Below, in pieces: positions 14,177-48,896 of a DNA stretch of 64,000 bases. The stretch is from Lentisphaerota bacterium. GTDB taxonomy: Bacteria; Verrucomicrobiota; Lentisphaeria; Victivallales; Victivallaceae. Under the pieces are notes generated by a model, which made no database searches, had not been told where the DNA came from, and saw only the letters and a list, made by a program, of their open reading frames with translations. The stretch spans positions 22,658 through 86,657 of the forward strand of contig JAAEMX010000211.1 in assembly GCA_024225035.1 (NCBI GenBank), in the 5' to 3' direction. The position numbers and the translations under genes are program-made. Within the stretch, counting starts at the first letter, position 1. Every line of letters begins with the position of its first letter.

Positions 14177-14195
14177 AGATATACAGGATTTACTC

Positions 14196-14459
14196 ATGAC
14201 CAAGAAAAAAGTAAAGGTAGAGATATGTGTTGGGACAACCTGTTTTCTGCTTGGAGCATCTAAGCTTCAGGAAATGGAAAGGTTTCTTCCGCCGGATCTT
14301 ACCGGTAGAGTTGAAGTGCAGGGCACCGCATGTCTTGGATGCTGCAGAAATGACAACTTTGGCAGCGCTCCGTTCGTCAAGGTTGATGATACTGATGTTA
14401 TTGCTAATGCTACCCTTGAAAAAGTTATAAATAGAGTCAGACGCAGCCTGAACCTCTAA
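14196..14459 (+). CDS. thioredoxin-like [2Fe-2S] ferredoxin (NuoE/HymA-like)
   Basis: 87 aa with CVGTTC ... CLGCC motifs. It sits immediately upstream of the catalytic hydrogenase. Confidence 0.6.
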   Translation: MTKKKVKVEICVGTTCFLLGASKLQEMERFLPPDLTGRVEVQGTACLGCCRNDNFGSAPFVKVDDTDVIANATLEKVINRVRRSLNL

Positions 14460-14467
14460 GGAGATAA

Positions 14468-15919
14468 GTGATGATAATGAAAGTAGCCAATAACGCTGAA
14501 AGAATCAGGCGTGAGCTGCTGATAAGAATAATCCGCAACTTTATGCGTGGAACCCTTAAGGATGTTATTGACCGTATTGCGGTTGATATGCGTCCTCGCA
14601 AGGAAAGGCCTTCACGCTGTTGTGTTTATAAAGACAGAGCCGTTCTTAAATATAGAGTTATGGCAATGCTTGGGTTTGGTATTGAAGATGAAATAGATGA
14701 AGCAAAGGCATTGAGCAAATATCTGAAAGAGGCTACAGAACGACAAGCCCCGGACGATAATATATTGAGTGTATTAGACGTGGCATGTTCAGCATGTGTT
14801 GAAAGTCAGTACTTAGTAACTAATGCATGTCGTGGTTGTTTTGCCCGACCATGTACCTTCAATTGTCCTCGTGATGCAATTCAAGTTGTTGACGGGCAGG
14901 CACGGATTGACCATAGTTTGTGCATTGACTGTGGTAAATGTACAAAAGTCTGCCCATATCATGCAATTATACGAGTGCCAATTCCATGTGAAGAAGCATG
15001 TCCGGTAAACGCTATTAAGAAACGTTCTGACGGAACGCAGGTGATTAACTTTAAAAGCTGCATTTCCTGCGGTAAATGCATGCAGGCGTGTCCTTTTGGA
15101 GCAATTCTGGAGCGTTCCCAGATTATTGATGTACTTAACGCAATTAAAAAAGGTAAAAAAGTCGTGGCAATGGTCGCACCCTCTATTGTCGGTCAGTTTC
15201 CTGGAAAACTCGCGCAGATAGCTGAAGCCGTCAAGCTGGTTGGGTTTGAGCTTATGGAAGAAGTTGCTCATGGAGCTCAAATGACCACTGAGCACGAGAC
15301 TAAAGAGTTTTTTGAACATATGGAGCAGGGAGACCACATTATGACTTCTTCGTGCTGCCCGGCTTATGTTGAGACCGTCAAAAAACATGTACCTCTTTTG
15401 CAGCCATATGTTTCTGATACTCCGAGCCCAATGCGTTTTACTGCCAGAGTCGTTAAAGAGAAATATGGATGTGACTGTGTTAGTGTGTTTATCGGGCCCT
15501 GTGTTGCAAAGCGCAAGGAAGCGCAAAGGTCTCCAAAAGTTGACTACGTATTAACATTTGAAGAACTAGGTTCTTTCTTTGCGGCCATGAATATCGATGT
15601 TGCGTCTCTGAAAGGAATTAAACTTCCGAGAAAAGTAGAAGGTTACGCACGTGGATTTGCCAGTAGTTGCGGGGTGACCTCTGCAATGCTGAAAGAGTCT
15701 ACCAAGACTGTGGCAGACAGCAACTTGGATAATGACGCGAAGTTTATAAACGGACTTGACCAAAAAACAGTTAAACAACTTCATCTTTACGGTAAAGGCA
15801 AACTCCCGGGCAATTTCCTCGAAGTAATGGCTTGCGAAGGAGGCTGTGTTGGAGGTCCTTGCGTGCTGGGTGATGTTAAGCTTGCTACTCGCGCGGTAAA
15901 AGCATCAACGGAAGAATAA
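14468..15919 (+). CDS. [FeFe]-hydrogenase catalytic subunit (monomeric, Fe-S-rich N-terminus; group B-like)
   Basis: All three intact H-cluster motifs are present: TSSCCPAY (L1), GPCVAKRKE (L2) and MACEGGCVGGPC (L3). Two 4Fe-4S ferredoxin motifs and extra N-terminal Cys clusters are also present. Confidence 0.85.
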   Translation: MMIMKVANNAERIRRELLIRIIRNFMRGTLKDVIDRIAVDMRPRKERPSRCCVYKDRAVLKYRVMAMLGFGIEDEIDEAKALSKYLKEATERQAPDDNILSVLDVACSACVESQYLVTNACRGCFARPCTFNCPRDAIQVVDGQARIDHSLCIDCGKCTKVCPYHAIIRVPIPCEEACPVNAIKKRSDGTQVINFKSCISCGKCMQACPFGAILERSQIIDVLNAIKKGKKVVAMVAPSIVGQFPGKLAQIAEAVKLVGFELMEEVAHGAQMTTEHETKEFFEHMEQGDHIMTSSCCPAYVETVKKHVPLLQPYVSDTPSPMRFTARVVKEKYGCDCVSVFIGPCVAKRKEAQRSPKVDYVLTFEELGSFFAAMNIDVASLKGIKLPRKVEGYARGFASSCGVTSAMLKESTKTVADSNLDNDAKFINGLDQKTVKQLHLYGKGKLPGNFLEVMACEGGCVGGPCVLGDVKLATRAVKASTEE

Positions 15920-35515: not shown

Positions 35516-36697
35516 ATGCAGCTTAGAAATTTTAGGCTCATTATTTCAGCAAGCGAGGCTATGAGATATTTTTGTAGAAAATGTCACGAATTCACCGAGA
35601 GAGATCAGGACAAATGTTGCACTAACTGTGGAGCATCCCTGGTAGATGCACCTATGGCTCCCGGAACTGATATAGGTGGTTTTGAAATTATAACGGAAAT
35701 CGGACGCGGAGCAAATGGAGTTGTCTATCTTGCCAAACAACTAACCCTTGAGCGTGATGTCGCATTAAAAGTATTGCCGGAACAGCGTGCTAATGATCCA
35801 GAATTTGTTAAAAACTTCCTGAAGGAAGCCAGAGCCGCGGCAAAACTCAATCACCCTAATATTGTACAGGCATATGATGCAGGAGTGAGCAGCCTTGGAA
35901 CATATTTCTTTGCAATGGAATACATTAGCGGTCGCACTCTGGACGAAAATCTCAAAGAGAATGGCCCACTGAAAGTTGCCCAAGCTATTAATATTGCTTT
36001 GAAGGTGGCTGAAGCACTTGATTATGCCTGGGAGAAACAGCGGTTATTCCACGGTGATATAAAACCAGACAATATTATTATGCGTAATGATGGCGATGTC
36101 AAACTGGCAGACTTGGGGCTTGCTGCAACCATTTTTGAAGAAAAATCAGAAGAAGTAATGGCAACTCCCATGTATGCTCCTCCTGAGGTTATCAGAGGCG
36201 AACATGATAAATTTGGCTGTAAAACTGATATGTACTCTTTTGGCGCAAGTCTTTATGAATTGTTTTCCGGGGAGCCGCCGCACAATGAATATGACTGCGG
36301 TAAAGTGTTGGAAATGCATTTACATGAAGCTCATATGCCATTAAAGGAAAAATTGACTGGGTTTCCGCAAAATGCTTCTGATTTAGTTGATTCTTTACTA
36401 GCTAAAAATCCTGATGAAAGACCCGATAGCTGGAAAGAAGTCATTGAACAATTGCAAGAAATTCAAGAAGCGGGCGCTGAAAAATCAAAGTCAGGTCACA
36501 ACAATTTTAAGAAAATAATCTTTTTTATTTTACCGGCACTGATTATTTTGTCAGGAATAGTTTTTTATTACTTAAAAGAGTCAAAGAAGAATGACGTTCC
36601 GGCTATTATTACAGCCACTTTAGATGAAGAACTGCATGGACAGAAAAGCACAGGTTCTCCAAAAAGTAAAATTTTTGATGTGAACAAAACAGCTTAA
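35516..36697 (+). CDS. Ser/Thr protein kinase with N-terminal Zn-ribbon and C-terminal TM anchor
   Basis: Hanks kinase motifs HGDIKPDNIIM, DLGLA and APPE. N-terminal CRKCHEF..CCTNCG. Single TM helix near the C-terminus. The start codon is ambiguous (35516 or 35561). Confidence 0.8.
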   Translation: MQLRNFRLIISASEAMRYFCRKCHEFTERDQDKCCTNCGASLVDAPMAPGTDIGGFEIITEIGRGANGVVYLAKQLTLERDVALKVLPEQRANDPEFVKNFLKEARAAAKLNHPNIVQAYDAGVSSLGTYFFAMEYISGRTLDENLKENGPLKVAQAINIALKVAEALDYAWEKQRLFHGDIKPDNIIMRNDGDVKLADLGLAATIFEEKSEEVMATPMYAPPEVIRGEHDKFGCKTDMYSFGASLYELFSGEPPHNEYDCGKVLEMHLHEAHMPLKEKLTGFPQNASDLVDSLLAKNPDERPDSWKEVIEQLQEIQEAGAEKSKSGHNNFKKIIFFILPALIILSGIVFYYLKESKKNDVPAIITATLDEELHGQKSTGSPKSKIFDVNKTA

Positions 36698-36701
36698 TCC
36701 C

Positions 36702-39245
36702 GTGTCGACCTCTAAGAATACGTCACCCCCTGTAAAGCGCAGAAGAAGAGGGCTGCCGACGAGTATTAGACGTGACCATGAGAGATTGAATCAAAAACTG
36801 CATGCAGCATTAAACAAGTGCAGCAAAGTACAGTTAAGGCAGTTGGAAAGAGATGTTCTCTCAATGAACAGGACGCTCAAACTCTACAGTCGCAGGTCTT
36901 CAGGAGAAGCAGAAAAAGCTATCGAAGTCATTAACGCATCTCTATTCAAAGTAAAAGAAGGTGTTGCCGAACGTGAAAAGGCAGCAAAAACAATAATTGC
37001 CATTCGGGCAAAAAACGCTGTTGAAAAGAAGCGACTGGATAAATTGCAGAAAGAGGTAAGAAGCGCTCTTAGACAGGCAAAATCTATTTCAGCAAAATCT
37101 ATTTCAGCAAAATATAAAATTCTATTTGCCTTTTCCAGTTTACCCACAGGAAAAAGGACGATCTCAAAGTTTAACTCTATTATAAAAGAAAATGGTAAAA
37201 GGCTTGGGCGTCAAGATAAAAAAATTATTGTCAGAATTGCAGCCTTATTAATAAACAATTACCAGCCGCAAAAAATATTGATAAAATACTTTGGACTTTT
37301 GAAAGATAAACAGCTCCCGTGGAGTATTAATGGCTATCAATATAAAATTATTGAAAATACTCCGAGATACTTCAAGATAAAGACGAAGTATAGCGAAGGA
37401 GCATATGGTATTAAAAAAATAAGTTGGAGCAGAATAACTGATGAGCATCTTTTGATGTTGTGGGATTGGTATATTATTGCATCCAAGGGGGAATTGACCG
37501 AAAGTGAAATTCAAAACGCCTCTCGCTGGCTCTTTACCGAAAAACATTATAAAATGTTAAAAGAATTTGCAGATAAGTATTGTTCAAAAAAGGATAAAGC
37601 ATTTTGGGACTCAATTCTCACCGAAACTGCAGATTCAGGAGTAGAATCCTCAGCTCTGTTATGTGCTGTCAATATTTTCAATGCCTTCAGGGCAGGGAAG
37701 AATGATAGACTTGTTTCACTTTCAGGACAATGGTGTAGAGAATTTACAGAAACTAAAACATATGCCAGGTTTAACAAGGTTATTGATAAAATAATAGCCA
37801 GAGGGAAAATCAGCTCTCCACTGGTCGCTGTTTCTAATGCATTATCAAAAGACCTTAAGCCTATTCAAATATGGGACATAGCCACAAGGTTCCAGCGACT
37901 TAAATGCGTTGACTCTGTAAGTAAAGAAGCTCTTCGAAAAAAATTTATGCTGGCGATGAACCAAATGAAAGGCAATCGAGAATATACTGGTACGTTTGGT
38001 GTATTCAATTATGTTCCAGCCGGAGGAATATACGGCTGGTCAGCTCCGGGAGATTCACAACAGATGTATTCTGCTCCTTTGCTTTATATACCGGCAATGA
38101 TGGATATCGGAGCATGGGCAAACGTTGCTGTCGTAATACTTAGGCGTCCAAATTCTTTAGGAATAAATGCACATTTTGATCAGGAGCTAAGACAGTGGCA
38201 TCCTTATTTTCTCTACAGTGCAGGTTGGGCAGCGTGGCAACTTGATTCTGAAGGCGTTCTAAAAATGTCTCTGGACAGACTCGAAAAGATTTTACGAACC
38301 GGAGGTGGTTTTGATAAAAGTGCGTATGCTTTGGCCGCAAATTTGGCAATGAAGAAGGAAAATCCTGAGCGCGCTATTAAGATTCTTAAACTATATAAAC
38401 CATCACGAAAAGAACATGATTTCCTGTTACCTTTATTCTATCTGAAAGCTTTAATAGCTCAAAATAAAATGAGTGAAAAACAAATTTCCGGATACAATGG
38501 AAAGTTAATTCGGCAGCACGGCAACAGCAAACTGCTTGAAAAAGATATTAAGCTACTTGGCATTTTAAAAAGTATAGTTTCTGGCAAAAAAGTTAATATA
38601 AGGTCAATAACGGCCAGTTTACTTGAAGGCTCATCGTATCCTCGGCTTTGGGGAGAACTGTTAACAGAGGCTGCCGCTAGAGATCTTTTATTGAGGAGAG
38701 ATTCACTTTCCTCTGTGGATTTTATAAAAGTTCTAAAAAAGATAAGTAAAGGGTCTGTCTTTTATGCTGATCTGAACCGCCAAATATTACTATATGAACT
38801 GGGCTCGCAAGAGCTGTATCCAGGCAGGGTACTTAGAATACTGGAGACTTCAATCACTGATTATCGTCCGAGCATGATGCCTCTTTATCCAGATATGGTA
38901 TTGCTGAGATCAGCATTTTACAGTTTGAACAGTAATGCTAAATCTATTGCTCATATTTTAAAATCATATTCTAATTACTGTCCCTTGTTTTCTAACTTTG
39001 AAATGCAGGCTTCTGTTCTAGCAAAAAGTTCTCCTGAAAAGGCATTAGCCTTATTCAAAAACTTAGAACGCAGGCGTCCACCTTCAGGAACTCTCTTGAA
39101 TTTAGGTATTCTTACTGCACTTGTACATTCCGACAGTAAATGCTCACAACAGGTTTTAAATGTTTTAAAGAAGCATGAAACGCAAATGAGCTGGACAGAG
39201 AAATTAATATTAAAGCGCTTTGAAACCTTGCTCAAAGCGCTTTGA
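36702..39245 (+). CDS. large hypothetical alpha-helical protein (847 aa), co-operonic with the Ser/Thr kinase
   Basis: GTG start 5 nt after the kinase stop. Basic N-terminus (KRRRRGLP); contains a KSISAKSISAK repeat; no recognisable catalytic motif. Confidence 0.45.
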   Translation: MSTSKNTSPPVKRRRRGLPTSIRRDHERLNQKLHAALNKCSKVQLRQLERDVLSMNRTLKLYSRRSSGEAEKAIEVINASLFKVKEGVAEREKAAKTIIAIRAKNAVEKKRLDKLQKEVRSALRQAKSISAKSISAKYKILFAFSSLPTGKRTISKFNSIIKENGKRLGRQDKKIIVRIAALLINNYQPQKILIKYFGLLKDKQLPWSINGYQYKIIENTPRYFKIKTKYSEGAYGIKKISWSRITDEHLLMLWDWYIIASKGELTESEIQNASRWLFTEKHYKMLKEFADKYCSKKDKAFWDSILTETADSGVESSALLCAVNIFNAFRAGKNDRLVSLSGQWCREFTETKTYARFNKVIDKIIARGKISSPLVAVSNALSKDLKPIQIWDIATRFQRLKCVDSVSKEALRKKFMLAMNQMKGNREYTGTFGVFNYVPAGGIYGWSAPGDSQQMYSAPLLYIPAMMDIGAWANVAVVILRRPNSLGINAHFDQELRQWHPYFLYSAGWAAWQLDSEGVLKMSLDRLEKILRTGGGFDKSAYALAANLAMKKENPERAIKILKLYKPSRKEHDFLLPLFYLKALIAQNKMSEKQISGYNGKLIRQHGNSKLLEKDIKLLGILKSIVSGKKVNIRSITASLLEGSSYPRLWGELLTEAAARDLLLRRDSLSSVDFIKVLKKISKGSVFYADLNRQILLYELGSQELYPGRVLRILETSITDYRPSMMPLYPDMVLLRSAFYSLNSNAKSIAHILKSYSNYCPLFSNFEMQASVLAKSSPEKALALFKNLERRRPPSGTLLNLGILTALVHSDSKCSQQVLNVLKKHETQMSWTEKLILKRFETLLKAL
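37079..37113 (+). repeat. 15-bp direct tandem repeat (2.3 copies) inside CDS
   Basis: aaaatctatttcagc x2 plus a partial third copy, encoding KSISA-KSISA. Confidence 0.6.
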
Positions 39246-39247
39246 AA

Positions 39248-39781
39248 TTATCTTTGGTAAAGATCATTTCCTTCTGAATCTATAGCGACAATCAAAGGCA
39301 TATTTTCAACTTCAAGTCGATGTATGGCTTCAGGACCGAGATCATCATAACAAACAACCTCACATGACTTAATGCAACGCGCAATTAAGGCAGCAGCACC
39401 GCCTGTTGCAGCAAAATATACACAACCATACTTTTTCATGGTGTCAATCACCTCAGGACTGCGTCCGCCTTTTCCAATCATCGCCCGTAATCCAGTGCTG
39501 GCTATAACAGTTGGAGAATAGGCATCCATGCGATAACTGGTAGTAGGGCCGGCACTGCCAATTGGTTGCCCTGGCTTTGCGGGGCATGGGCCGACAAAAT
39601 ATATTGTCTGACCATTGAGATCTACTGGCAGCTCTTTACCTGCTTCTATAAGGTCACATAAGCGTTTATGAGCAGCATCACGACCAGTGTATATAACGCC
39701 AGAAAGCAAAACTTGATCGCCTGCTTTCAATTTTCTTACGGTATTTTCGTCAAATGGGGTACTTAAACTAACTAAACTCAT
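39248..39781 (-). CDS. class I (Fe-S) fumarate/tartrate hydro-lyase, beta subunit (C-terminal-domain type); mesaconase candidate
   Basis: TtdB/FumA-C motifs (GPCPAKPGQPIGSAGPTTSYRMD, VYFAATGGAAALIA). Last gene of the glutamate mutase operon. Confidence 0.85.
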   Translation of the reverse strand: MSLVSLSTPFDENTVRKLKAGDQVLLSGVIYTGRDAAHKRLCDLIEAGKELPVDLNGQTIYFVGPCPAKPGQPIGSAGPTTSYRMDAYSPTVIASTGLRAMIGKGGRSPEVIDTMKKYGCVYFAATGGAAALIARCIKSCEVVCYDDLGPEAIHRLEVENMPLIVAIDSEGNDLYQR

Positions 39782-39790
39782 TGCGTTTCC

Positions 39791-40696
39791 TCAAATCTCA
39801 AATCCGGCATGCCTTGCTGCATGACAGTTAAGGTTAACGGCTACAGGCAGAGAAGCTATATGACATGGGAATTTCTCTATATGGACAGCCAGAGCCGTAG
39901 TATCACCGCCCAGTCCTTGAGGCCCAACGCCGGAAGCATTGATTTTCTTTAGAATTTCCTGTTCAAGCTCAGCGTATTCTTTTTCATCATGAGGCTGACC
40001 AACTTCTCTAAGCAAAGACTTTTTCGCTAAAAAAGCAGCCTTTTCAAATGTTCCGCCAATTCCTACGCCCACAATTGTAGGCGGACACGGGTTGCCGCCA
40101 GCGCCGGTAACAGTCTGTACAACAAAATCAATTATGCCTTCTTTACCATCTGATGGTTTCAGCATTTTAAGTTGACTCATATTTTCTGAACCACCGCCCT
40201 TAGGAGCTAGTACAACACTAATTTTATCGCCGGGAACGAGTTTCAGATGGATAATTGGCGGAGTATTATCTCCCGTATTCTCACGGTTAAAAATCGGGTC
40301 TTTTACGATTGACTTACGGAGATACCCTTCTTTATAACCTTTACCTGTTCCTTCGGTAATAGCTTCATAAATTGTGCCGCCATCAACTTTCACCAATTCT
40401 CCCATTTCTACAAAGAAAACAGCAAACCCTGTATCTTGACATATAGGCATACGCTCAGTTGAAGCAATTTCCGCATTCTCCAAGTACTGCCGCAAAAATT
40501 CTTTTGCACGCACCGAGTTTTCAGAATTGAGATATTCCTTTAGCTTATTAAGAACATCCTGAGGTAGGTCGTAAGCTGCCTTCATGCAGCAAGCAGCAAC
40601 TTCATTGACAATTCTGTCGTACGGAACATGCCTGAGCATATCCTTGAGGCTTTTATTCTTCGCTATTTTTAAGACTCCCATGACCTGATTCACCAA
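39791..40696 (-). CDS. class I (Fe-S) fumarate/tartrate hydro-lyase, alpha subunit; mesaconase candidate
   Basis: TtdA/FumA-N fold with the CQDTG motif and Cys ligands. Confidence 0.85.
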   Translation of the reverse strand: MVNQVMGVLKIAKNKSLKDMLRHVPYDRIVNEVAACCMKAAYDLPQDVLNKLKEYLNSENSVRAKEFLRQYLENAEIASTERMPICQDTGFAVFFVEMGELVKVDGGTIYEAITEGTGKGYKEGYLRKSIVKDPIFNRENTGDNTPPIIHLKLVPGDKISVVLAPKGGGSENMSQLKMLKPSDGKEGIIDFVVQTVTGAGGNPCPPTIVGVGIGGTFEKAAFLAKKSLLREVGQPHDEKEYAELEQEILKKINASGVGPQGLGGDTTALAVHIEKFPCHIASLPVAVNLNCHAARHAGFEI

Positions 40697-40705
40697 TATA
40701 TTTGT

Positions 40706-41653
40706 TTAAGTTGAGACATTATCCTCTTCGCTATTTTTAGGAGGAAGGGTGCTGAACCCAGTTATTTCTTCCTGACCGGCAAGGCCGACAAGCAGATATT
40801 CTTTGCTGATTGGGTCCATGAAAAACTTCTTAAGCAGCCGGAAGTTCTCTATTTCACCAGTTGATTTGACATGAATACGCTTACCGGTACAATATATTTT
40901 ATCCTTTCGAACTTCAATATAGTTGCCTTCAGCGGCTTTTATCGGAATATCCTGTTTGATCAACTCCTTGATACGGTTTTCAAGTTCGTTAATATCAAAG
41001 TTCGGTTCTTCCGGAAAACCTATTACAAAGCCGTGTTTAACGTCAGAATGCAATTCCGGCAACTTACAATTATAAACATTTTTAAGCAGCCAGCAAGTAA
41101 GGTCCTCGGCACTGTGGGCCATAAGACGGTACTTGGCGTTTTTTTCAATACTGGACTTTATATCCAATGGAGACGGGCCAAACACTGTTGGTCGGAATAC
41201 GCGTAAATCTTCACCAATAGCAAAAATGATCTGCGCATTATAGCCTAAGTGATTATAAATAAGGTCAAAATGCTCAACAACAACTCTTTTTCCTGCTGTG
41301 ATAGCTCGGTTTACTGCTTCAGCAATCTCAAAAAGTTGATGGAAGGCCGATTCGAACCGGATGTCAATATGAAAGGTATGACCTGCAAAATAATCATCTT
41401 CTGAAAAGTCATAAAGCGGAGCGCGACGATTATTTATACCATCATCATCATTAGTCAGCTCAAGGCCTGGGAATAGACCTCTGATAAGGGTAGACTTACC
41501 GGAACCTTCACATCCGATAATTCCGACAAGTCTATCTTCTGCATCCAAATAGCGCTGCGATAAAAAGTGAGCCATTCTGTACAGGCGACGCTTCCCGCGC
41601 GGCGCATGATACTGCGCTGTTATCAAATTGTTTTCCAGCAATCGGCCGGGCAT
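40706..41653 (-). CDS. uncharacterised P-loop NTPase
   Basis: Walker A motif GCEGSGKSTL. No further recognisable family. Embedded between the DUF4387 gene and the fumarase genes. Confidence 0.5.
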   Translation of the reverse strand: MPGRLLENNLITAQYHAPRGKRRLYRMAHFLSQRYLDAEDRLVGIIGCEGSGKSTLIRGLFPGLELTNDDDGINNRRAPLYDFSEDDYFAGHTFHIDIRFESAFHQLFEIAEAVNRAITAGKRVVVEHFDLIYNHLGYNAQIIFAIGEDLRVFRPTVFGPSPLDIKSSIEKNAKYRLMAHSAEDLTCWLLKNVYNCKLPELHSDVKHGFVIGFPEEPNFDINELENRIKELIKQDIPIKAAEGNYIEVRKDKIYCTGKRIHVKSTGEIENFRLLKKFFMDPISKEYLLVGLAGQEEITGFSTLPPKNSEEDNVST

Positions 41654-41655
41654 AT

Positions 41656-41973
41656 TTATACCTCTAGTTCAAGTTTAAGCAATGGCGCGTGCTGTTGAGC
41701 CCCGTAAACGTCAGTGTCACCGGGTGCGCCTGAAGCCACAGGGCGATCCATGACCGCCTTAATAGCTCTTGCAACATCAAAGTAGATAACTTTTTTTACT
41801 TTATCCAACGGAATTCCATAGGCTTCCGCAATGACTTCTTTATTGATGGCATTGGCATCCTTGATAGCTTGGAAGTCAGCTTCATCTTTAATGATGATAT
41901 CCATTGTCAATTCAAAAGGACTGCAGTTCTTGGAACGAATCACCGTTGCCGCGTCAATTAATTTCATTTTCAT
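41656..41973 (-). CDS. DUF4387-like small protein (AtuA C-terminal-domain-like)
   Basis: 105 aa, immediately downstream of the DUF1446 gene, as in split AtuA-like pairs. Confidence 0.5.
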   Translation of the reverse strand: MKMKLIDAATVIRSKNCSPFELTMDIIIKDEADFQAIKDANAINKEVIAEAYGIPLDKVKKVIYFDVARAIKAVMDRPVASGAPGDTDVYGAQQHAPLLKLELEV

Positions 41974-41990
41974 AGCAGGTGCCCCCCTTA

Positions 41991-43352
41991 TTATAGCTCA
42001 TGAATTTCAGTTTTAAACACGTCATTCTCGTCAATCTCCAACAAATGGTAAATAGAGAACTTGTAGACATCTCCAGCGCTGATATCAGATGGAGAGAACG
42101 GGAACGCCAGATTTCCGGCAGTTGCAATGCGCCCGGGATATCCGTAATGCAGCAATGTTGAACGAACAATACTGCAGATAGCATCAGCATCATTCTGGCT
42201 GTCAGCCAGAGTTTCAATCAGTACGCAAACTTCAAGTGATTCCATTTTTTCAGGCTCAAGGTCGGCCATTACGCCATTTTTACCATAAACATGGAAGAAA
42301 ATTTCACCTTTTACACCCTCAGATTCAAGCATGGAAGAGGTGTTTTCTTTGACAGTTTCAAGGATTGAATCAATCTGCCTGATCATAATCGGATCACGAG
42401 TACCGGCTATAGATATTGTTCTGCAGCCGACCTTTTCAGTTCCCTCGAGTTTCACTGTTGGGTTTTCTTCAGGAATGAATTTGGTGCCGGATACTTTAAT
42501 TCTTCCTTCAGGAAGCTCTTCAAATTTAACTTCGCTCAGATCAAGCATTCCACCTGGTCCAGGCAGTAAATATGGGTCTGATTTTTCATATAATGAATGA
42601 GCTGCAGTAGAGTTTTTAGTGAATTCTCTAATTGGATTAAGAGGAACTAATTCAAAATAGTCATCATGCAGAATGCCCATAACACAGTCGCAGCCTGACC
42701 CCGGACTTGCCGCTATAGCTGCGCATTCAAGAATTTTGCCCATGTGCAGAGCCAGAGCCGGATCAAAACCTAACGAAATCGGCTTTGCTGCAAAGGCTGT
42801 AGGATCGTACGCTCTCCCCGCAAGGACGACCTGGCAACCTTGATCAAAGGCATTTTTAATAGGACCAATTCCCATCTGAGCTACGATATTAGTAGCTTTG
42901 TCTACGGTTGCATCGTCAAGCTCTGGTAGTCCGCCTAGGGGTCTGGTTTTACCTGCTTTTATTGCAGTCTTGATTATTTCTTTATCAACATCTGCATAAA
43001 TAACGCCCATAGTGAACGCTAAATTATCTTCTTCTGCAATTTCTTCTGCAATCTCACGACACCAGTCAACATGAGGCTTGGCTCCGCATCCGCCAGCTGA
43101 CCCGATGACGGCAGGAATGTCAAGGTTATATGCAGCTTTCAGGATGTACCTTAAGTCACGTTTTACTCCGTCACGATTGGTAAAGGATTTACCTGAACCA
43201 AGGTAGTACGGGCCTGGGTCAACCGAACCAGCATCGATAGCAATCATATCTGGCTGCATCTCGATTCCGCGATTGAAAGATTCTTCCGGGAATCCATAGC
43301 CTAAGATTCCACTGGGTGAAAGGACTTTGAATTCTGTTTGAGGGATGTTCAT
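41991..43352 (-). CDS. DUF1446 (AtuA-like) family protein
   Basis: 453 aa. N-terminal GILGYGFPEESF and AIDAGSVDPGPYYLG motifs resemble the AtuA/DUF1446 family. The start overlaps the mal stop by 4 nt. Confidence 0.6.
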   Translation of the reverse strand: MNIPQTEFKVLSPSGILGYGFPEESFNRGIEMQPDMIAIDAGSVDPGPYYLGSGKSFTNRDGVKRDLRYILKAAYNLDIPAVIGSAGGCGAKPHVDWCREIAEEIAEEDNLAFTMGVIYADVDKEIIKTAIKAGKTRPLGGLPELDDATVDKATNIVAQMGIGPIKNAFDQGCQVVLAGRAYDPTAFAAKPISLGFDPALALHMGKILECAAIAASPGSGCDCVMGILHDDYFELVPLNPIREFTKNSTAAHSLYEKSDPYLLPGPGGMLDLSEVKFEELPEGRIKVSGTKFIPEENPTVKLEGTEKVGCRTISIAGTRDPIMIRQIDSILETVKENTSSMLESEGVKGEIFFHVYGKNGVMADLEPEKMESLEVCVLIETLADSQNDADAICSIVRSTLLHYGYPGRIATAGNLAFPFSPSDISAGDVYKFSIYHLLEIDENDVFKTEIHEL

Positions 43353-44602
43353 TCTTCTTCTCCGTATTTTGAGCGAAGCAGCGCAATGGAACGCTGCATT
43401 TCATTATTGGTGATCATGTAGCCTTCGTCAAAACCCATTCCCGGCTTGGCGAGAATGCGGGCAGGGCGGGTTGCCAGCGCCGCCTGGGTACAGCATCTGG
43501 CAGAAACGTCAGTTTCGTTACAAGTGCCGCCTTGATAAGCTTCCATGTCGTTTCTCTGACAGTAAAGAACAGCCTTGACAGTATTGTGAATGCTGCCAAG
43601 ATCCGGGGTTTTTATCTGAACCATATGGCAGCACTTAGTATCAGTGAAGTCAACAATGTCCTCATAAGTGTTGCACCATTCATCAGCGACAATCTTAGTA
43701 GCCGCTCCCATACGTTCCATTTCTTCTTTGATTTTACCGAGCATTTCGATTTGAGGTTCTTTGGCTTCCATGTCAACAGGACCTTCAATATATAAAGGCA
43801 GGCCTTTTGTCAATTTGCCAAGGTCAGTCAGGTATTGAGCAATTTTTACAGGATCATTATCAAAAATCGGTCCCAGGTTGCCATATACATCAATATGGAT
43901 AGCAGGACGGTAATCCCCGTCAGGGCCTAATTCGAAAATTCTATTAGTCAGCCATTCAATATATTCAGCAAGCTTTTCGCCGTTGAGCCCAAGCTTGGTT
44001 TCTATATGATTGATAAGTGCGTGTGGCAACACATCAACACCCTTAATAATCATTTTATCTGAAGCATTGTAGCGATCGTCACCACTCTGACCAAAAATTG
44101 GAATTTTTTCAGCTATTACAGGCAGTGAAAACTCTTCGCACAACACTTCGCACATTAATTTGCCTTCGCTTTTGGCCTTAGCGTCAAGCAAAGCCTGACT
44201 CAAACCATAGCGTAAAGCTGTATGTAATGGTTTTCCATCAATCTTCAGCTGATCAATATAAGCAGCAGTTTCGCGGAAACTGTCGATACTCAAGCCTAGT
44301 AAAATAGGACTGATATGTTCTTCCATGAAAGGAATATAAGTTTCAGCAAGGAGCAAGGGATCACGGCCGCCAGCTCCACTGTACTGTACAGCAGCAGCAT
44401 CGCCAACGCCTACCTGACCATTTTCCATTTCAAGCATGATTGAGATTGACTCTCCTGACTGCCTGATAGCGGTAAAGCCTTCTGTTACCGGATCACCTAC
44501 ATAGGTAAATCCATCATGGCCTGCGCCCTGTTTGATTGCACGTTGATCATCGAAGAAAAAACCGGTTTTACCTGCAGAATATGTTATATTTTTTATTTTC
44601 AT
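43349..44602 (-). CDS. mal: methylaspartate ammonia-lyase (beta-methylaspartase)
   Basis: N-terminus MKIKNITYSAGKTGFFFDDQRAIKQGAGHDGFTY closely matches the MAL N-terminus; enolase-superfamily length (417 aa). Confidence 0.9.
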   Translation of the reverse strand: MKIKNITYSAGKTGFFFDDQRAIKQGAGHDGFTYVGDPVTEGFTAIRQSGESISIMLEMENGQVGVGDAAAVQYSGAGGRDPLLLAETYIPFMEEHISPILLGLSIDSFRETAAYIDQLKIDGKPLHTALRYGLSQALLDAKAKSEGKLMCEVLCEEFSLPVIAEKIPIFGQSGDDRYNASDKMIIKGVDVLPHALINHIETKLGLNGEKLAEYIEWLTNRIFELGPDGDYRPAIHIDVYGNLGPIFDNDPVKIAQYLTDLGKLTKGLPLYIEGPVDMEAKEPQIEMLGKIKEEMERMGAATKIVADEWCNTYEDIVDFTDTKCCHMVQIKTPDLGSIHNTVKAVLYCQRNDMEAYQGGTCNETDVSARCCTQAALATRPARILAKPGMGFDEGYMITNNEMQRSIALLRSKYGEEE

Positions 44603-46044
44603 CGTGGCCTCCCGACTAGTCTGCCTTTACTTATTGAATAAATATCATCAATTACCATTTGAAAACTTGCTTCACGTTTTTCAATGTCTGCTCTTTTCTG
44701 GATCAATTCTTTATGAATTTTTCGGATATCTTCAGGAATTGGAACTTTGCCGAAATCCAAAATACGAATTGCTCCATGATTGTCGCGAACCGGCATCATT
44801 TTGCCTGGGTTGGCAAGAGAAGGAGCAAATGGGATATCTATAACTCCGGCCTGAAATGCTCTTACAGCTCCCTCTGCAATATTACCGTTTCCAAGCTGTA
44901 AAGTAGCATCCATCAAAGCACGAGTTTCACGTTTAATAAGTTCAACTTCCCAGAGCATCTGTTTGGTTTCAGGAACTTCCTGATCAGCCAGCATGTTAAC
45001 AATCTGCCGAGTGCATTTCAGCCCTTCGAGATTGGCTTCTTTGGTAGGAATACCAAATGCTTCATGCGGAGTTTTTACGATAACTTTTGTCGCTTTTGCA
45101 AGTGCCGCAGCAGTTCCGCCCCAGGTTATCACAGAAAATGCTTTAGCCTGGTCTTCAGGGAAACCTCCCATCCATTGATGCAGAACAGTACTTAACTCGT
45201 AATCATTGTATCCAGCTTTCTGGAAATATTCATCTGCTAATTCACGCAAGGCCATCATAGCAGCGATATCCTGAATCATATTGCCGGCCTGACCATAACC
45301 GAGAGTGATCGACCTTACTCCCTGTTCAAGTGCCATTAGACCTTCCAGTATAGCAACTGTATGGCTGGCAAACGGCGGCACCAGAGTGCCGGAAAGAGGG
45401 CCAAAAGGTTCACGGTTTATTCTTACGCCTTGCTCCTCAAAATATCCAACGAGTCGGTCAATGTACTGCCAGCAGGAAATGGAATGCTCCAAAGTAACTT
45501 TTTTAGCATAAGGAATATTATAAGAGATACCGCCCCCCTCATATGAGGTAAAGCCGGCTGCAAATGAAATTTCCGCCAGCAAACGTGCATCTGGAGTTCC
45601 ATGTCTGATTTCTACAGGTTTACTAAGGCTTTCGACTAATCGACGGCATTCTGCTATGCCGTGGTTAACAGCAGGGAATCCATTTAATAAAGATTGGCCT
45701 GCAGCCTTTGACTTTTCGATGCCGCGTTGAGCTTCGTTATATTGATTGAGTCGTGTGTATGCGTCGATAGTTGTGGGGAGCAGGTCGCATTCAGGCTCTA
45801 GAAATTTCAGCAATTGAATATGCTCTTCAACCAATGCTACTCCTGCACGAGGTTGTAAGAGAACCTGTTTGGCCTGGTCCGCTTCATGCATCTTTTTCGC
45901 AAAGTTCATACTGTCGGGTAAGCCGCGCTGGTATTGAACCGCGTCTTCGAGGTCAACGTCCTGACCTGTCGGCCAGGTTTGCAAAGCGCCTTCGCGCATT
46001 TGCATGAATTCGCTTTCGGGAATTTTCCCTTGGTAAAGCTTCAT
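44599..46044 (-). CDS. glmE: glutamate mutase (methylaspartate mutase) E/epsilon subunit
   Basis: 481 aa TIM-barrel subunit with a characteristic N-terminus, in operon order S-L-E-mal. Confidence 0.9.
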   Translation of the reverse strand: MKLYQGKIPESEFMQMREGALQTWPTGQDVDLEDAVQYQRGLPDSMNFAKKMHEADQAKQVLLQPRAGVALVEEHIQLLKFLEPECDLLPTTIDAYTRLNQYNEAQRGIEKSKAAGQSLLNGFPAVNHGIAECRRLVESLSKPVEIRHGTPDARLLAEISFAAGFTSYEGGGISYNIPYAKKVTLEHSISCWQYIDRLVGYFEEQGVRINREPFGPLSGTLVPPFASHTVAILEGLMALEQGVRSITLGYGQAGNMIQDIAAMMALRELADEYFQKAGYNDYELSTVLHQWMGGFPEDQAKAFSVITWGGTAAALAKATKVIVKTPHEAFGIPTKEANLEGLKCTRQIVNMLADQEVPETKQMLWEVELIKRETRALMDATLQLGNGNIAEGAVRAFQAGVIDIPFAPSLANPGKMMPVRDNHGAIRILDFGKVPIPEDIRKIHKELIQKRADIEKREASFQMVIDDIYSISKGRLVGRPR

Positions 46045-47435
46045 TTTGATATCTCCCTCAAGGCAATTTTGTTTAAAGCTGTAGCTGCTGCGGCTTTTGG
46101 AGCTATACGAGCTGTATTAGCTAAAAGCGGCAGCAAATATTCATGGTCAGCGAAGAACTCAGGGTTTTCCGGTAACAGTATCTCCTCTTCCGGATTAACA
46201 GATGTGGCACCTGCAAAAGTATCCTTCAGAATTTCATTACCAGCCTGAGCAAGAAAACCGCCGGTTCCGATTATAGTCTGGATCCGCTGCAGGTTTTTTC
46301 CTGTTTGAACAGAAGTCGGCCCTACAATTGTGTAAACGGTTCTTCTTCGCCCGGAGTGTCTGACTGCCGCAGTTCTCAAACAGACAGCTGCAAGCAGTTT
46401 TTCCAGTTTTTTTTCAGTGTCATTTTTGGGCAGGTATGAAGGCTCTTCTTTAAATTTAAAAAGAAAAGCATCCAGTTCATCTCTGCTAAGTGAGTTTTCC
46501 TCCAGCTTAAATTCTACAAATCTTGCATCTGACGCAATTGCAGCATCGGCACAAATACGCATCCCAACGTCACCTTCTACCGTACGTTTTATATCCGGTT
46601 CAGGAAGACCTCTGGTTATTACGCTATCCGAATCAAGCTCACGCCTGGTACGAGAATAAAAATCTGTCGTTGCACCACCCATATCGATAATACAAAACTC
46701 GCGTGGTGATTTAGAGTAATCAGCCAGCACTTTGACAAATTCAAGCATGGAGTAGGGGGTCGGTACTGGAGTTTGTCCAGTACGCTCCATTAATTCATCA
46801 AGCCCTTTACCGGTGACAATCTGCTTGAGAAATATTTCTCTTATTTTTGATTGTGCCGGTACTGGATTGGGACAGTTAAGCTCCGGCAGTACATTTTCAA
46901 TTATGTGCAATTGATGCTTAGCAAGCAACTCTCTGGCTTGCTTATGCAGACTGCGGTTAGCTGCAAATATGATCGGGATATTCTTGGAAATATCTTTTAT
47001 CATATGCAGATTATGCCCGACAATTATCTCATTGCCGCCGTCAGTTCCGCCGGTAAAAAGAATAATATCAGGACGTTGATTATTAATGAGAGTTATATCT
47101 TCGTCTGTAAGTTTGTAGGCAAAAACAGATTGGATTTTGCCGCCTGCGGAACAGGCGGCCTCCTTTGCCATTTTAAGCGTTAGTTCCGGCACAACACCAA
47201 TAGCTGCTATAGCCAGGCCGCCTTTGGCAGAAGAAGAATAAACCAAACTGCAGTTTCCCGGTATCTCTTCACTGCCGAACAGATCAAGACAACACGAAGA
47301 AAAGCCATCAGCAAGATGACTTGTTGTTGTCGGAACGCAGGTTCTGCTTATAAGTTCAAGGCTTTCATCATAATATCTGAATAAAGCCCCTTTCGTAAAA
47401 GTGGAACCAATATCAATACTGACTATTTTGTCCAT
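46041..47435 (-). CDS. glmL: glutamate mutase accessory/chaperone protein GlmL (MutL)
   Basis: ASKHA-fold N-terminus MDKIVSIDIGSTFTKGALF; located between the S and E subunits. Confidence 0.8.
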   Translation of the reverse strand: MDKIVSIDIGSTFTKGALFRYYDESLELISRTCVPTTTSHLADGFSSCCLDLFGSEEIPGNCSLVYSSSAKGGLAIAAIGVVPELTLKMAKEAACSAGGKIQSVFAYKLTDEDITLINNQRPDIILFTGGTDGGNEIIVGHNLHMIKDISKNIPIIFAANRSLHKQARELLAKHQLHIIENVLPELNCPNPVPAQSKIREIFLKQIVTGKGLDELMERTGQTPVPTPYSMLEFVKVLADYSKSPREFCIIDMGGATTDFYSRTRRELDSDSVITRGLPEPDIKRTVEGDVGMRICADAAIASDARFVEFKLEENSLSRDELDAFLFKFKEEPSYLPKNDTEKKLEKLLAAVCLRTAAVRHSGRRRTVYTIVGPTSVQTGKNLQRIQTIIGTGGFLAQAGNEILKDTFAGATSVNPEEEILLPENPEFFADHEYLLPLLANTARIAPKAAAATALNKIALREISK

Positions 47436-47859
47436 CTTCAGCCCTGCGACCCAAAATATCTTGTTTCAGAAAATTTATACAATCTTCAAGAGGGGTATCC
47501 GGAGTAAAAACTCTGTCATATCCCATACTCTTGAACTTAGTTACAATTTCTTCGTTTGGAGTTTTTCCGACAACCAGGTTGCCGCCGACATATAGAATTA
47601 CGTTTTCAAGGCCGCGTTCGACACAGCGTTCGCGAAAACCCTGGCAGTCTATTTCGCCATGCCCGTAAAGGGAGGAGACTATAATTGCTTCTGCCCCGGT
47701 TTCTATTGCAGCATCTATGTATTCATCTTGACTTACCATTACGCCAAGGTTCACAACATTGAATCCTGCTTCGCTGAAAACTCTTTCGAGAATTTTATTT
47801 CCAACAGCGTGACAGTCAGCACCTATCACACCCAAAACCATGGTTGCATGTTCCATCAT
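47413..47859 (-). CDS. glmS: glutamate mutase S/sigma subunit (B12-binding)
   Basis: B12-binding DxHxxG motif (GADCHAVGNKIL) in a 148-aa protein. Confidence 0.85.
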   Translation of the reverse strand: MMEHATMVLGVIGADCHAVGNKILERVFSEAGFNVVNLGVMVSQDEYIDAAIETGAEAIIVSSLYGHGEIDCQGFRERCVERGLENVILYVGGNLVVGKTPNEEIVTKFKSMGYDRVFTPDTPLEDCINFLKQDILGRRAEDGQNSQY

Positions 47860-47885
47860 TCAAACCCGTTACAGTGTAACGCTCC

Positions 47886-48896
47886 TTAACGTTTTTCCAT
47901 TAGTTCTGAAATCTTTTCCTCAATCCTGATCAAAGCCGTTCTTTCCAATTGGTATTCGAAACGAATTATTATCCCACCACGCTGAAGGAAGTCACTGAAT
48001 GCATTACTGCAGACTTTGTCTTCTTCCAATGTGCACTTGGGAGGCGTAATCAGAACTGTCTTGTTTTCCAAAAAGGCATTAATATTTTCAGGAGAACTTT
48101 CTGGAAGCCATGGTTTATTTTTCAGGCTTATATGAAATTCCCCGAGTTTATTTTTAATAATATTATAGAAATTCTCGCTTTGAGAAATAATCCCTATATT
48201 GTTGTTCCTCGGGATGGTTGCCAGGTCAATTATTGTCTGCTGGCTGGGAGTTACTACAGCTTGAATTAAGCGATCTTTACACTCAGACAAAACACCACTG
48301 ATCTCCGGATAATGAGTTGTGGTTGTAAGAATAAGATCAAAATTTCTCAGTTGTTTACAAGTTCTGGGTTTTGATAGTTTATTGAGCAGAAACTTATGGA
48401 GGCGAACATTCGCCAAATGTTGCAGTTGTGACTCAAATATTGAAAGAGCTTCAGGATTACAGTCAACTCCGGCAATATGGAAATTTTCCAGTCTGCGCTG
48501 TCTGTCCATAAGTAGAAGCTGCAGCATGGTGCTGATTTCCTGATGAGTGAAATTTAGCTTTTCGAGAGATTCTATACTTTGATTAAGCAGCTTAACAGCT
48601 GTTTCTTTACGGCTGACCGGAACAACATCCTGCTGCGAGGATACAAAAGTTCCTCTGCCATGCACGATTTGAATAACATGATTAACGGCCAGGCGTTCAT
48701 ACGCTTTTTTTACGGTGCCTCGTGCTGTCCCGATTTCCTGAGCAAGTTCACGTTCAGGAGGTAGTTTATCTCCTGCTTTCAGCTGACCACTTTGGATCTG
48801 CTGTGTCACGCGCTCAATAATCTGACGATATACTGGCATATCTGAGTTTTTGTCAATCGTAATGCGCATTGTTTTCCTTATCTTTTTTGATAGCAA
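47886..48896 (-). CDS. GntR-family transcriptional regulator with C-terminal ligand-binding domain
   Basis: N-terminal winged HTH (PVYRQIIERVTQQIQSGQLKAGDKLPPERELAQEIGTARGTVKKAY); directly upstream of the glm operon. Confidence 0.7.
   Translation of the reverse strand: MLSKKIRKTMRITIDKNSDMPVYRQIIERVTQQIQSGQLKAGDKLPPERELAQEIGTARGTVKKAYERLAVNHVIQIVHGRGTFVSSQQDVVPVSRKETAVKLLNQSIESLEKLNFTHQEISTMLQLLLMDRQRRLENFHIAGVDCNPEALSIFESQLQHLANVRLHKFLLNKLSKPRTCKQLRNFDLILTTTTHYPEISGVLSECKDRLIQAVVTPSQQTIIDLATIPRNNNIGIISQSENFYNIIKNKLGEFHISLKNKPWLPESSPENINAFLENKTVLITPPKCTLEEDKVCSNAFSDFLQRGGIIIRFEYQLERTALIRIEEKISELMEKR

Follow-up and report, generated by a model that had tools for sequence, protein, structure and literature searches.

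The methylaspartate pathway ends with the cleavage of citramalate, a reaction which in Clostridium tetanomorphum and related clostridial clusters is associated with the classical CitDEF-type citramalate lyase, an enzyme whose acyl-carrier subunit bears a prosthetic group and which is accompanied by activation enzymes (CitC/CitG/CitX). Kronen and Berg (2015) noted that citramalate cleavage was unexplained in bacteria that possess glutamate mutase and methylaspartase and are without a CitDEF-type lyase. In E. coli O157:H7, the citrate, isocitrate and methylisocitrate lyases were found by these authors to be devoid of citramalate lyase activity, and a DUF1446 gene was flagged downstream of mal, the gene for 3-methylaspartate ammonia-lyase (MAL), in this organism as well as in Dictyoglomus.

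Chains A and B of the PDB entries 9ERQ and 9EVF, from Raoultella planticola, are deposited as the citramalate lyase subunits CmlA and CmlB, which consist of a large DUF1446 and a small DUF4387 protein, respectively. According to a 2026 preprint, enterobacterial CmlAB splits citramalate in vivo, yielding pyruvate and acetate, and in E. coli growth on mesaconate is Cml-dependent, with label reaching leucine derived from acetyl-CoA. The function of CmlAB is supported by the names of the PDB molecules and by a single preprint in which the enzyme was used; our literature search returned no paper on DUF4387, or on AtuA in connection with citramalate lyase. The E. coli orthologue (O157:H7-type) is ~92% identical to 9ERQ_A and lies within the gene order glmS-glmL-glmE-mal-cmlA-cmlB-gltP-fumD-cobO, a cluster type that carries a LysR regulator.

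Proteins of the same Pfam family (PF07287) are also known as AtuA from acyclic terpene utilisation in Pseudomonas and Thauera. AtuA consists of one chain of ~600 aa, with 615 aa in Thauera, a length which suggests fused DUF1446 and DUF4387 parts. It acts on a CoA-ester substrate, is encoded in the atu operon together with geranyl-CoA carboxylase and has tentatively been described as an acetate-releasing lyase of a tertiary hydroxy acid, a chemistry analogous to that of citramalate lyase.

Here, we report a gene cluster in a Lentisphaerota genome that places such a DUF1446/DUF4387 pair inside a methylaspartate-pathway operon, together with a third gene (X315). The window, which is the whole stretch of DNA that was analysed, covers 64 kb, and the features of the cluster are listed in Table 1. 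An earlier sequence-only reading of this DNA had called DUF1446, DUF4387 and Walker A proteins from three adjacent ORFs; the ORFs were recovered on the minus strand exactly at the positions it gave, and the first two calls agree with the Pfam matches listed.

Table 1. Features of the methylaspartate-pathway cluster, with positions in the 64-kb window.
Feature	Position	Strand	Supporting match or remark
GntR-family regulator, 336 aa	47886..48896	-	Pfam GntR, E 9.8e-20; cluster head, 26 nt before glmS
glmS, glutamate (methylaspartate) mutase B12-binding subunit S	47413..47859	-	NCBIfam NF002612, 223.7 bits (cut-off 110)
glmL/mutL, glutamate mutase accessory protein	46041..47435	-	Pfam MutL, E 1.7e-119; NCBIfam TIGR01319, 420.9 bits (cut-off 204)
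glmE, glutamate mutase catalytic subunit E	44599..46044	-	TIGR01503, 733.7 bits (cut-off 390)
mal, 3-methylaspartate ammonia-lyase	43349..44602	-	TIGR01502, 534.7 bits (cut-off 286)
cmlA (DUF1446/AtuA family), 453 aa, predicted large subunit of CoA/ACP-independent citramalate lyase	41991..43352	-	PDB 9ERQ_A/9EVF; Pfam AtuA, E 1.6e-18
cmlB (DUF4387), 105 aa, predicted citramalate lyase small subunit	41656..41973	-	PDB 9ERQ_B, E 1.7e-27; Pfam DUF4387, E 1.6e-34
X315 (third gene), 315 aa, two domains	40706..41653	-	P-loop ATPase of TsaE/ABC type, residues ~1-160; ThrRS/AlaRS editing-like (AlaX-like), ~160-297
mesA, alpha subunit of class I fumarase-type hydratase, putative mesaconase	39791..40696	-	Pfam Fumerase, E 8.6e-116; NF004885, 404.8 bits (cut-off 276)
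mesB, hydratase beta subunit, last operon gene	39248..39781	-	Pfam Fumerase_C, E 3.4e-63
Terminator-like hairpin, bidirectional, 13-14 pairs	39210..39245		just 3' of mesB

The genes are tightly packed on the minus strand in the order gntR-glmS-glmL-glmE-mal-cmlA-cmlB-X315-mesA-mesB, and the catabolic operon context that had been proposed for the trio is borne out by the glm, mal and mes genes on either side of it. The position of the GntR regulator at the head of the cluster is common to most related loci. The mal stop codon and the cmlA start share 4 nt (ATGA), as had been noted earlier; however, this overlap is not peculiar to the mal/DUF1446 junction, as the coordinates give 4-nt overlaps at the glmL/glmE and glmE/mal junctions too. 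A gap of 17 nt holding a Shine-Dalgarno-like GGGGGG run separates cmlA from cmlB, the gap between cmlB and X315 is 2 nt, and 9 nt lie between the end of X315 and the first candidate start of mesA, the true start of which may be the ATG at 40681. The hairpin behind mesB is common to the operon and a convergent ORF of 847 aa. A promoter scan found 30 candidates against 23.5 ± 4.8 expected, which is not above chance. Neither Rfam families nor tRNA genes were found in the window and therefore, no riboswitch or T-box is tied to the operon.

Homology establishes the predicted identities of the pathway genes: the scores of GlmS, GlmE and MAL exceed the NCBIfam equivalog cut-offs, both fumarase-type subunits (Fumerase and Fumerase_C) are present, and CmlAB completes the set. 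The fumarase-type subunits would constitute a mesaconase, as judged from orthology and context. CmlA matches 9ERQ_A with 58% identity over 435 residues (E 2.5e-164; residues 7-445 on 4-439), and CmlB is covered by its match to 9ERQ_B over residues 1-104 of 105. The match of CmlA to the Pfam AtuA/DUF1446 model is moderate by comparison (67 bits in two stretches, cut-off 22.8), and the protein is therefore taken to represent a divergent subfamily. Given the PDB matches, the use of the enzyme in the preprint and the known occurrence of DUF1446 downstream of mal, CmlAB is assigned to the final reaction of this pathway, and from orthology and context we infer that it would here cleave (S)-citramalate to pyruvate and acetate with neither a CoA nor an ACP cofactor. 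The C5-dicarboxylate substrate which the sequence-only reading had deduced from context would accordingly be citramalate. Two further statements of that reading are not supported, namely that the AtuA family is without assigned function, since its close homologues here are the CmlA/CmlB of the PDB and of the 2026 preprint, and that it is otherwise known only from terpene clusters, since Kronen and Berg (2015) had already placed DUF1446 downstream of mal.

Compared with the enterobacterial systems, the cluster has the same large and small subunit genes at the same site, directly downstream of mal within a cluster for glutamate mutase, MAL and mesaconase. It differs in having a GntR regulator, a hydratase split into MesA and MesB and an additional 315-aa gene between cmlB and mesA, whereas the enterobacterial clusters continue with gltP-fumD-cobO and are without X315. 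The classical CitDEF-type lyase occupies the same pathway step and catalyses the reaction that homology predicts for CmlAB, but its proteins are unrelated. None of the ORFs scanned in the 64-kb window (all those of the operon and, elsewhere, those of at least 150 aa) encodes an HpcH/CitE- or CitF-type protein or matches the CitE beta, CitF alpha, ACP gamma or CitC/G/X families. In contrast to AtuA, the protein in the window comes as two chains of 453 and 105 aa, and its genes are without atu-type neighbours. It is conceivable that the DUF1446/DUF4387 pair here has some other AtuA-type function and that citramalate is cleaved by an enzyme encoded elsewhere, and the search for CitDEF genes, which extended over the 64-kb window only, leaves some room for this. 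However, we consider it highly unlikely in view of the full-length 58% identity to a solved CmlA, the retention of the pair between mal and mesaconase across many phyla, and the lack of a last enzyme in the pathway otherwise.

X315 is a TsaE/ABC-like P-loop ATPase fused to an AlaX/ThrRS-editing-like domain with conserved Cys- and His-containing motifs. The earlier label of P-loop NTPase is correct as to the Walker A domain (motif GCEGSGKST, residues 47-55) and incomplete as to the C-terminal half, which has an aminoacyl-tRNA editing-domain fold (ThrRS/AlaX-like). In Pfam and NCBIfam, nothing scored above cut-off; the match to tRNA_SAD reached 14.8 bits, below the cut-off of 24, and a sub-threshold match of this kind was seen in 19/30 members of the family. 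Invariant in the family are H180xxxD184 and C255x5H261, which we take to be variants of the HxxxH and CxxxH motifs of editing domains; such domains stand alone (AlaX) or are embedded in synthetases (ThrRS N2, AlaRS). The N-terminal half does not correspond to a stand-alone TsaE, the ~150-aa t6A ATPase and TsaBD partner that scores above the Pfam TsaE threshold. Members are compact and highly conserved, with 50-70% identity across many phyla. Sequence searches of solved structures with X315 and with the family profile returned ABC and ABCF ATPases only, at the level of the Walker A motif, and an exhaustive HMMER search for relatives yielded 318 representatives, mostly fragments, among which there was no remote relative of known function. 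One 577-aa protein (P0211) ends in a region that corresponds to the C-terminal part of the X315 family. No literature was found under the NCBI product name of X315. A hypothetical gene of 314 aa that precedes glmS in E. coli was considered as a displaced homologue of X315 and showed no similarity (BLASTP E 1.3).

A neighbourhood scan seeded with X315 was used to compare related loci (designated by L numbers), 64 of which had enough upstream DNA to be counted. The directly upstream pair position was occupied by cmlA in 59 of these 64 loci and X315 followed immediately after cmlB in 58-59, with a median distance between matches of ~46 nt; GlmE and MAL (and likewise glmS/glmE) co-occurred with X315 in 48/49 loci and a mesaconase lay downstream in 45/57, all of these being counts from phylogenetically non-independent loci. 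Gene order is kept far beyond chance. Outside the enterobacteria, most versions of the pathway include X315. It is absent from all 14 enterobacterial-type loci, the type from which CmlAB was solved, and from 6/7 cmlAB loci that are without glm/mal. Conversely, two loci (L007 and L018) retain X315 with glm/mal and are without cmlAB, and two others (L055 and L006) retain it with a succinyl-CoA-synthetase-like thiokinase and a CitE-like lyase in place of CmlAB. The immediate neighbour of X315 varies between cmlB, mal, glmL/glmE, a CitE-like gene and mesA. Pfam scans of the ORFs downstream in L018 and L077 were mostly uninformative. As the gene is the usual follower of cmlAB, is missing from enterobacterial and most glm/mal-less cmlAB loci, and is kept where CmlAB is absent, we regard X315 as a pathway-level accessory and not as a lyase subunit.

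This distribution bears directly on whether X315 could be a dedicated third component of CmlAB outside the enterobacteria, for example a regulatory subunit, an activase or a factor for assembly or metal insertion, such that the trio forms one unit. Its placement directly after cmlB in nearly all counted loci, at a distance of only 2 nt in the window, would fit such a role, as would the numerous His, Cys, Asp and Glu residues that do not vary in the family and could bind metal. One locus (L096) consists of cmlA-cmlB-X315 alone amid unrelated flanking genes, with no glm/mal within 3 kb upstream, and for this arrangement a CmlAB-linked role is the better fit. Nonetheless, the solved CmlAB comes from a cluster type without X315, cmlAB by itself sustains growth in E. 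coli, X315 is missing from six cmlAB loci that have no glm/mal, the four loci named above keep it where cmlAB is missing, and in loci of the L111 type it follows mesA instead of cmlB. We therefore consider a CmlAB-dedicated component unlikely, and the functional trio proposed in the sequence-only reading is not supported, given the absence of X315 from enterobacterial clusters with a CmlAB that is active heterologously and its presence in clusters without CmlAB. The link to glutamate mutase, with which X315 co-occurs in 48/49 loci (as glmS/glmE), may instead indicate a nucleotide-dependent chaperone, cofactor-loading or repair factor for this B12 enzyme that complements or replaces GlmL or an adenosyltransferase. 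MeaB is a comparable factor for methylmalonyl-CoA mutase. X315 lies between glmL and glmE in L055 and occurs in loci that are without glmL (L020, L029, L032, L049, L071 and L078), and enterobacterial clusters without X315 carry cobO instead. However, the cobO anti-correlation is confounded by phylogeny, the fold is neither that of a G3E GTPase nor of any known adenosyltransferase, faint MeaB matches appeared in only 4/30 members and no B12-binding motif was detected in X315, so that a service to glutamate mutase seems to us rather improbable. The narrower proposal that X315 replaces CobO was weakened by L155, which has both X315 and a CobO-like gene.

The C-terminal fold raises the possibility that X315 is a trans-editing-type hydrolase, or an aminoacyl- or amino-acid-binding factor, and shields the cell from 3-methylaspartate, the non-proteinogenic amino acid of the pathway; it might for instance deacylate tRNA mischarged with this compound, with the TsaE-like ATPase coupling or regulating the reaction. 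Trans-editing factors are not known to require an ATPase, the X315 family is mildly acidic (median pI 5.9), and the pathway runs without X315 in Enterobacteria and clostridia. No literature tying methylaspartate to tRNA mischarging or to aspartyl-tRNA synthetase was found, and tRNA genes as neighbours amount to two cases, both at or near contig ends. Such a trans-editing role must on balance be called unlikely. It is likewise doubtful that X315 is a quality-control device embedded in the pathway, in which the editing domain and TsaE-like ATPase, co-expressed with glutamate mutase and methylaspartase, would remove mis-activated or tRNA-mischarged 3-methylaspartate or otherwise neutralise the analogue; if true, this would tie a catabolic operon directly to translational fidelity.

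Taken together, the window operon probably encodes a complete methylaspartate pathway for glutamate fermentation with CmlAB as its lyase and X315 as an accessory outside the lyase itself. In the proposed route, GlmS and GlmE, aided by GlmL, would convert glutamate to (2S,3S)-3-methylaspartate, which MAL would deaminate to mesaconate. Hydration by MesAB would give (S)-citramalate, and CmlAB would cleave this product with no need for the acyl-carrier-protein machinery on which the classical CitDEF-type lyase relies. X315 would most likely serve the pathway as an ATP-dependent factor with an accessory or protective role.

CmlAB closes the gap in citramalate cleavage left by Kronen and Berg (2015). 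Clustering of CmlAB with methylaspartate ammonia-lyase and mesaconase in the window, in E. coli and in >100 other loci, the related loci coming from Lentisphaerota, Spirochaetota, Planctomycetota, Acidobacteriota (Aminicenantes), Rifleibacteriota and others, shows that the CmlAB route is common and not an enterobacterial oddity. In RefSeq these genes are named "acyclic terpene utilization AtuA family protein" and "DUF4387 domain-containing protein", and as the names lag behind, glutamate fermentation is under-called in metagenomes. The combination of an ATPase with an aminoacyl-tRNA-editing fold in X315 is an unexpected architecture for a catabolic operon, and its role could reveal an unrecognised need of the methylaspartate pathway, for example for cofactor or enzyme repair or for protection from a toxic intermediate.

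The DUF1446 and DUF4387 genes and their neighbours form a tightly packed row on the minus strand of the window (39248-48896). The gene identities were established by homology, with every named gene of the operon backed by Pfam and NCBIfam and with the NCBIfam equivalog cut-offs well exceeded by GlmS, GlmE and MAL. The stop codon of mal overlaps the start of the DUF1446 gene as ATGA, and the same 4-nt overlap is found at the glmL/glmE and glmE/mal junctions; 17 nt separate the DUF1446 stop from the DUF4387 start, which is preceded by a G-rich ribosome-binding site, and the gene of the Walker-A protein (X315) starts 2 nt after the DUF4387 stop. A bidirectional terminator-like hairpin of 13-14 pairs lies 3' of mesB, the last gene of the operon. 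The sequence-only reading had described a trio of DUF1446, DUF4387 and P-loop NTPase genes coupled to mal in such an operon, and its coordinates and gene setting agree with the ORFs, the ATGA junction and the Pfam and NCBIfam matches.

Genes of the glutamate mutase/methylaspartase operon in the window
Gene	Coordinates	Strand	Product length
GntR-family regulator	47886-48896	-	336 aa
glmS	47413-47859	-	148 aa
glmL	46041-47435	-	464 aa
glmE	44599-46044	-	481 aa
mal	43349-44602	-	417 aa
DUF1446/AtuA protein (cmlA)	41991-43352	-	453 aa
DUF4387 protein (cmlB)	41656-41973	-	105 aa
Walker-A protein (X315)	40706-41653	-	315 aa
Class I fumarase-type hydratase, alpha subunit (mesA)	39791-40696	-	301 aa
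Class I fumarase-type hydratase, beta subunit (mesB)	39248-39781	-	177 aa

In the GntR-type regulator, a known domain accounts for no more than the first ~85 residues; the C-terminal ~250 residues have no Pfam family, yet are kept at cluster heads in many phyla and are a candidate effector-binding domain. On the plus strand (35516-39245), an 847-aa ORF without a Pfam family begins 4 nt after the stop of a Ser/Thr protein kinase gene (393 aa); the ORF is convergent with the operon and shares with it the terminator hairpin (39210-39245). Further away (11285-15919, plus strand), two [FeFe]-hydrogenase-like genes with Fe_hyd_lg_C and ferredoxin domains enclose genes for a small Fe-S protein and a SpoIIE-type phosphatase, a layout that recalls hydrogenases with sensory or regulatory roles.

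When searched against the sequences in the Protein Data Bank, the DUF1446 and DUF4387 products each gave one strong match, namely chain A of 9ERQ/9EVF (E 2.5e-164, 58% identity over 435 residues) and chain B (E 1.7e-27, whole length), named by the depositors "Citramalate lyase, subunit A (cmlA)" and "subunit B (cmlB)". The 9ERQ chain A is about 92% identical over its full length to the E. coli orthologue, which is encoded in the order glmS-glmL-glmE-mal-[AtuA family]-[DUF4387]-gltP-fumD-cobO, and the mal-cmlA segment was matched by blastn in 1123 of 5426 complete E. coli genomes. According to a 2026 preprint, an E. coli acetyl-CoA auxotroph grows on mesaconate in a Cml-dependent manner and label from mesaconate reaches leucine. 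The link between glm-mal and DUF1446 was already published in 2015, when the DUF1446 gene 3' of mal was noted in E. coli O157:H7 and Dictyoglomus; citramalate was not cleaved by the citrate, isocitrate and methylisocitrate lyases of E. coli O157:H7, and "the fate of (S)-citramalate ... unclear" was left as a gap (Kronen and Berg 2015, PMC4682846) that CmlAB closes precisely. The window ORFs that were scanned include no protein of the HpcH/CitE or CitF type.

In the proposed pathway, GlmS/GlmE with adenosylcobalamin, assisted by the accessory protein GlmL, would convert glutamate to (2S,3S)-3-methylaspartate, from which MAL would release NH3 to give mesaconate. MesAB, a class I fumarase-type Fe-S hydratase, would then form (S)-citramalate, and CmlAB would cleave this to pyruvate and acetate; for MesAB and CmlAB, we infer these substrates in the Lentisphaerota bacterium from orthology and context. 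The cmlA/cmlB pair is a new member, from Lentisphaerota, of an enzyme family that was established only recently, and the suggestion that the operon gives an uncharacterised family its substrate context has been overtaken by the structural and synthetic-biology work. Since AtuA in terpene utilisation is proposed to split acetate off a tertiary hydroxy acid, as in citramalate cleavage, the AtuA family was not entirely without proposed chemistry. Public annotation lags behind: in RefSeq/PGAP, the E. coli orthologues are still 'acyclic terpene utilization AtuA family protein' and 'DUF4387 domain-containing protein' (locus L001, NZ_CP128875.1, 9748-11432). A metagenome locus (L121, contig Ga0326728_10001251, 5244-11175) carries cmlA-cmlB without glm/mal, flanked by genes for a B12-binding radical SAM protein and for a succinate dehydrogenase/fumarate reductase flavoprotein and 2Fe-2S subunit; it could be a natural counterpart of the 'methylsuccinate module' built synthetically in the 2026 preprint, a route supplying citramalate lyase from methylsuccinate or a similar dicarboxylate.

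X315 has no Pfam or NCBIfam family. A large protein collection held 3336 homologues, the best 120 of which are all 55-100% identical (the 100% match comes from a Lentisphaerae MAG). HMMER, run exhaustively against 1.84 billion cluster representatives, gave only 318 matches, mostly fragments, and no remote relatives; the family is compact and isolated. In a 30-sequence alignment, the invariant positions comprise a Walker A motif (G-x-E-G-x-G-K-S-T), FPGLxLTNxD, H92/H95, E127-H128-F-D, R176-L-M-x-H180-x-A-E-D184, S203, G208-F209, C255-x3-R-x-H261, I268 and F271, with H202, D204 and H207 at least 90% conserved. The AlphaFold2 model is confident (pLDDT 84, pTM 0.78), and its second set of structure matches consists of the t6A ATPase TsaE/YjeE (5np9 10.5, 6nak 10.4, 1fl9 10.1). 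Sub-threshold Pfam matches to ABC_tran (30/30 members), TsaE (26/30) and tRNA_SAD (19/30, covering residues 260-275) agree with the structure matches. H180-S-A-E-D184 resembles the HxxxH helix found in editing domains, with Asp in place of the second His, and may be a variant of it; C255-T-G-K-R-I-H261-V-K-S-T-G-E-I-E-N-F-R-L is similarly like their C-x-x-x-H-V-x-x-T-G-x-I-x-x-F-K motif with a two-residue insertion, and E-H-F-D-L-I-Y is like the TsaE motif H-F-D-L-Y-R. Model, Pfam matches and motif likenesses together indicate that X315 probably joins a TsaE/ABC-like ATPase to an AlaX-like domain, so that its earlier label of P-loop NTPase holds for the ATPase part and misses the second domain.

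With X315 as seed, a scan that took a single genome for each species yielded 80 loci, spread over Lentisphaerota, Spirochaetota, Planctomycetota, Aminicenantes/Acidobacteriota, Rifleibacteriota, Holophaga, Propionivibrio, Desulfosporosinus and others; among them, strain zth2 is nearest to the window (93% identity, gene order as in the window). Of the 64 loci whose DNA extends far enough, 59 have cmlA/cmlB directly upstream of X315; GlmE and MAL occur in 48 of 49, and a split or fused mesaconase follows in 45 of 57. X315 occurs without cmlAB in L007 (glmE-mal-X315-mesA) and L018 (mal-X315). The Kofleriaceae locus L055 (7199-17365) reads gntR-glmS-glmL-X315-glmE-mal, then succinyl-CoA-synthetase-like beta and alpha genes and an HpcH/CitE-like lyase, and the Planctomycetales locus L006 (8-4339) reads thiokinase beta-alpha, CitE-like lyase, X315; tblastn found no mesaconase near either cluster. 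This gene content suggests that a CoA-ester route replaces CmlAB in both groups with X315 retained.

The reverse scan, seeded with CmlA in metagenomes, also returned 80 loci, and among those with good flanks X315 accompanies 17 of 20 non-enterobacterial glm/mal-cmlAB loci, none of 14 of enterobacterial type and one of seven with cmlAB but no glm/mal, a free-standing cmlA-cmlB-X315 unit (L096). Four loci (L111, L115, L129, L160) have the order glmE-cmlA-cmlB-mal-mesA-X315, and L155 carries X315 and a CobO-like adenosyltransferase. Seven loci (L020, L029, L032, L049, L071, L078, L101) keep X315 with no glmL detectable between glmS and glmE; L083, a glm-mal-cmlAB cluster without X315, has a tandem glmS pair (1972-2839) 71% and 68% identical to the window GlmS. 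No pathway genes lie near X315 in L005 (9992-12429) and L081 (272-2664), where the co-directional neighbours are gatB (tRNA-dependent amidotransferase subunit B) or rph-rdgB (RNase PH, Ham1); both loci are near contig ends and the adjacency may be coincidence. X315 is without a fixed operon neighbour and follows the glutamate mutase/methylaspartase part more closely than CmlAB, counts to be read as trends in loci that are phylogenetically non-independent.

X315 is no core lyase subunit, because the solved, heterologously active CmlAB comes from clusters without it; with its absence from enterobacterial-type loci and its retention where cmlAB is missing, the trio is not supported as a functional unit. 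We rank first, as an umbrella reading, the possibility that X315 assists or protects the pathway as a whole in an ATP-dependent manner. A role as an activase or third subunit specific to CmlAB is unlikely: adjacency to cmlAB and the L096 unit point to it, but the enterobacterial enzyme does without X315 and some loci have X315 without CmlAB. Comparably low odds attach to a trans-editing-type hydrolase or amino-acid-binding factor directed against the non-proteinogenic 3-methylaspartate, which would suit the editing-domain fold with its Cys/His motifs apparently kept, the origin of both halves in tRNA-linked families, the tie to glm-mal whichever downstream route is used and the two stray loci beside gatB or rph-rdgB; however, it leaves the ATPase unexplained, the pI is mildly acidic and the literature searched offers no support. 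A glutamate mutase/B12 chaperone, a role that would suit the L055 order, where X315 separates glmL from glmE, and the loci that have X315 but no glmL, is if anything a little less probable, as the fold speaks against it.

Compared with the characterised enterobacterial cluster, the window cluster has a GntR regulator and a split mesaconase, and the main difference is the extra conserved gene. X315 is a well-defined and widespread component with an unusual architecture.
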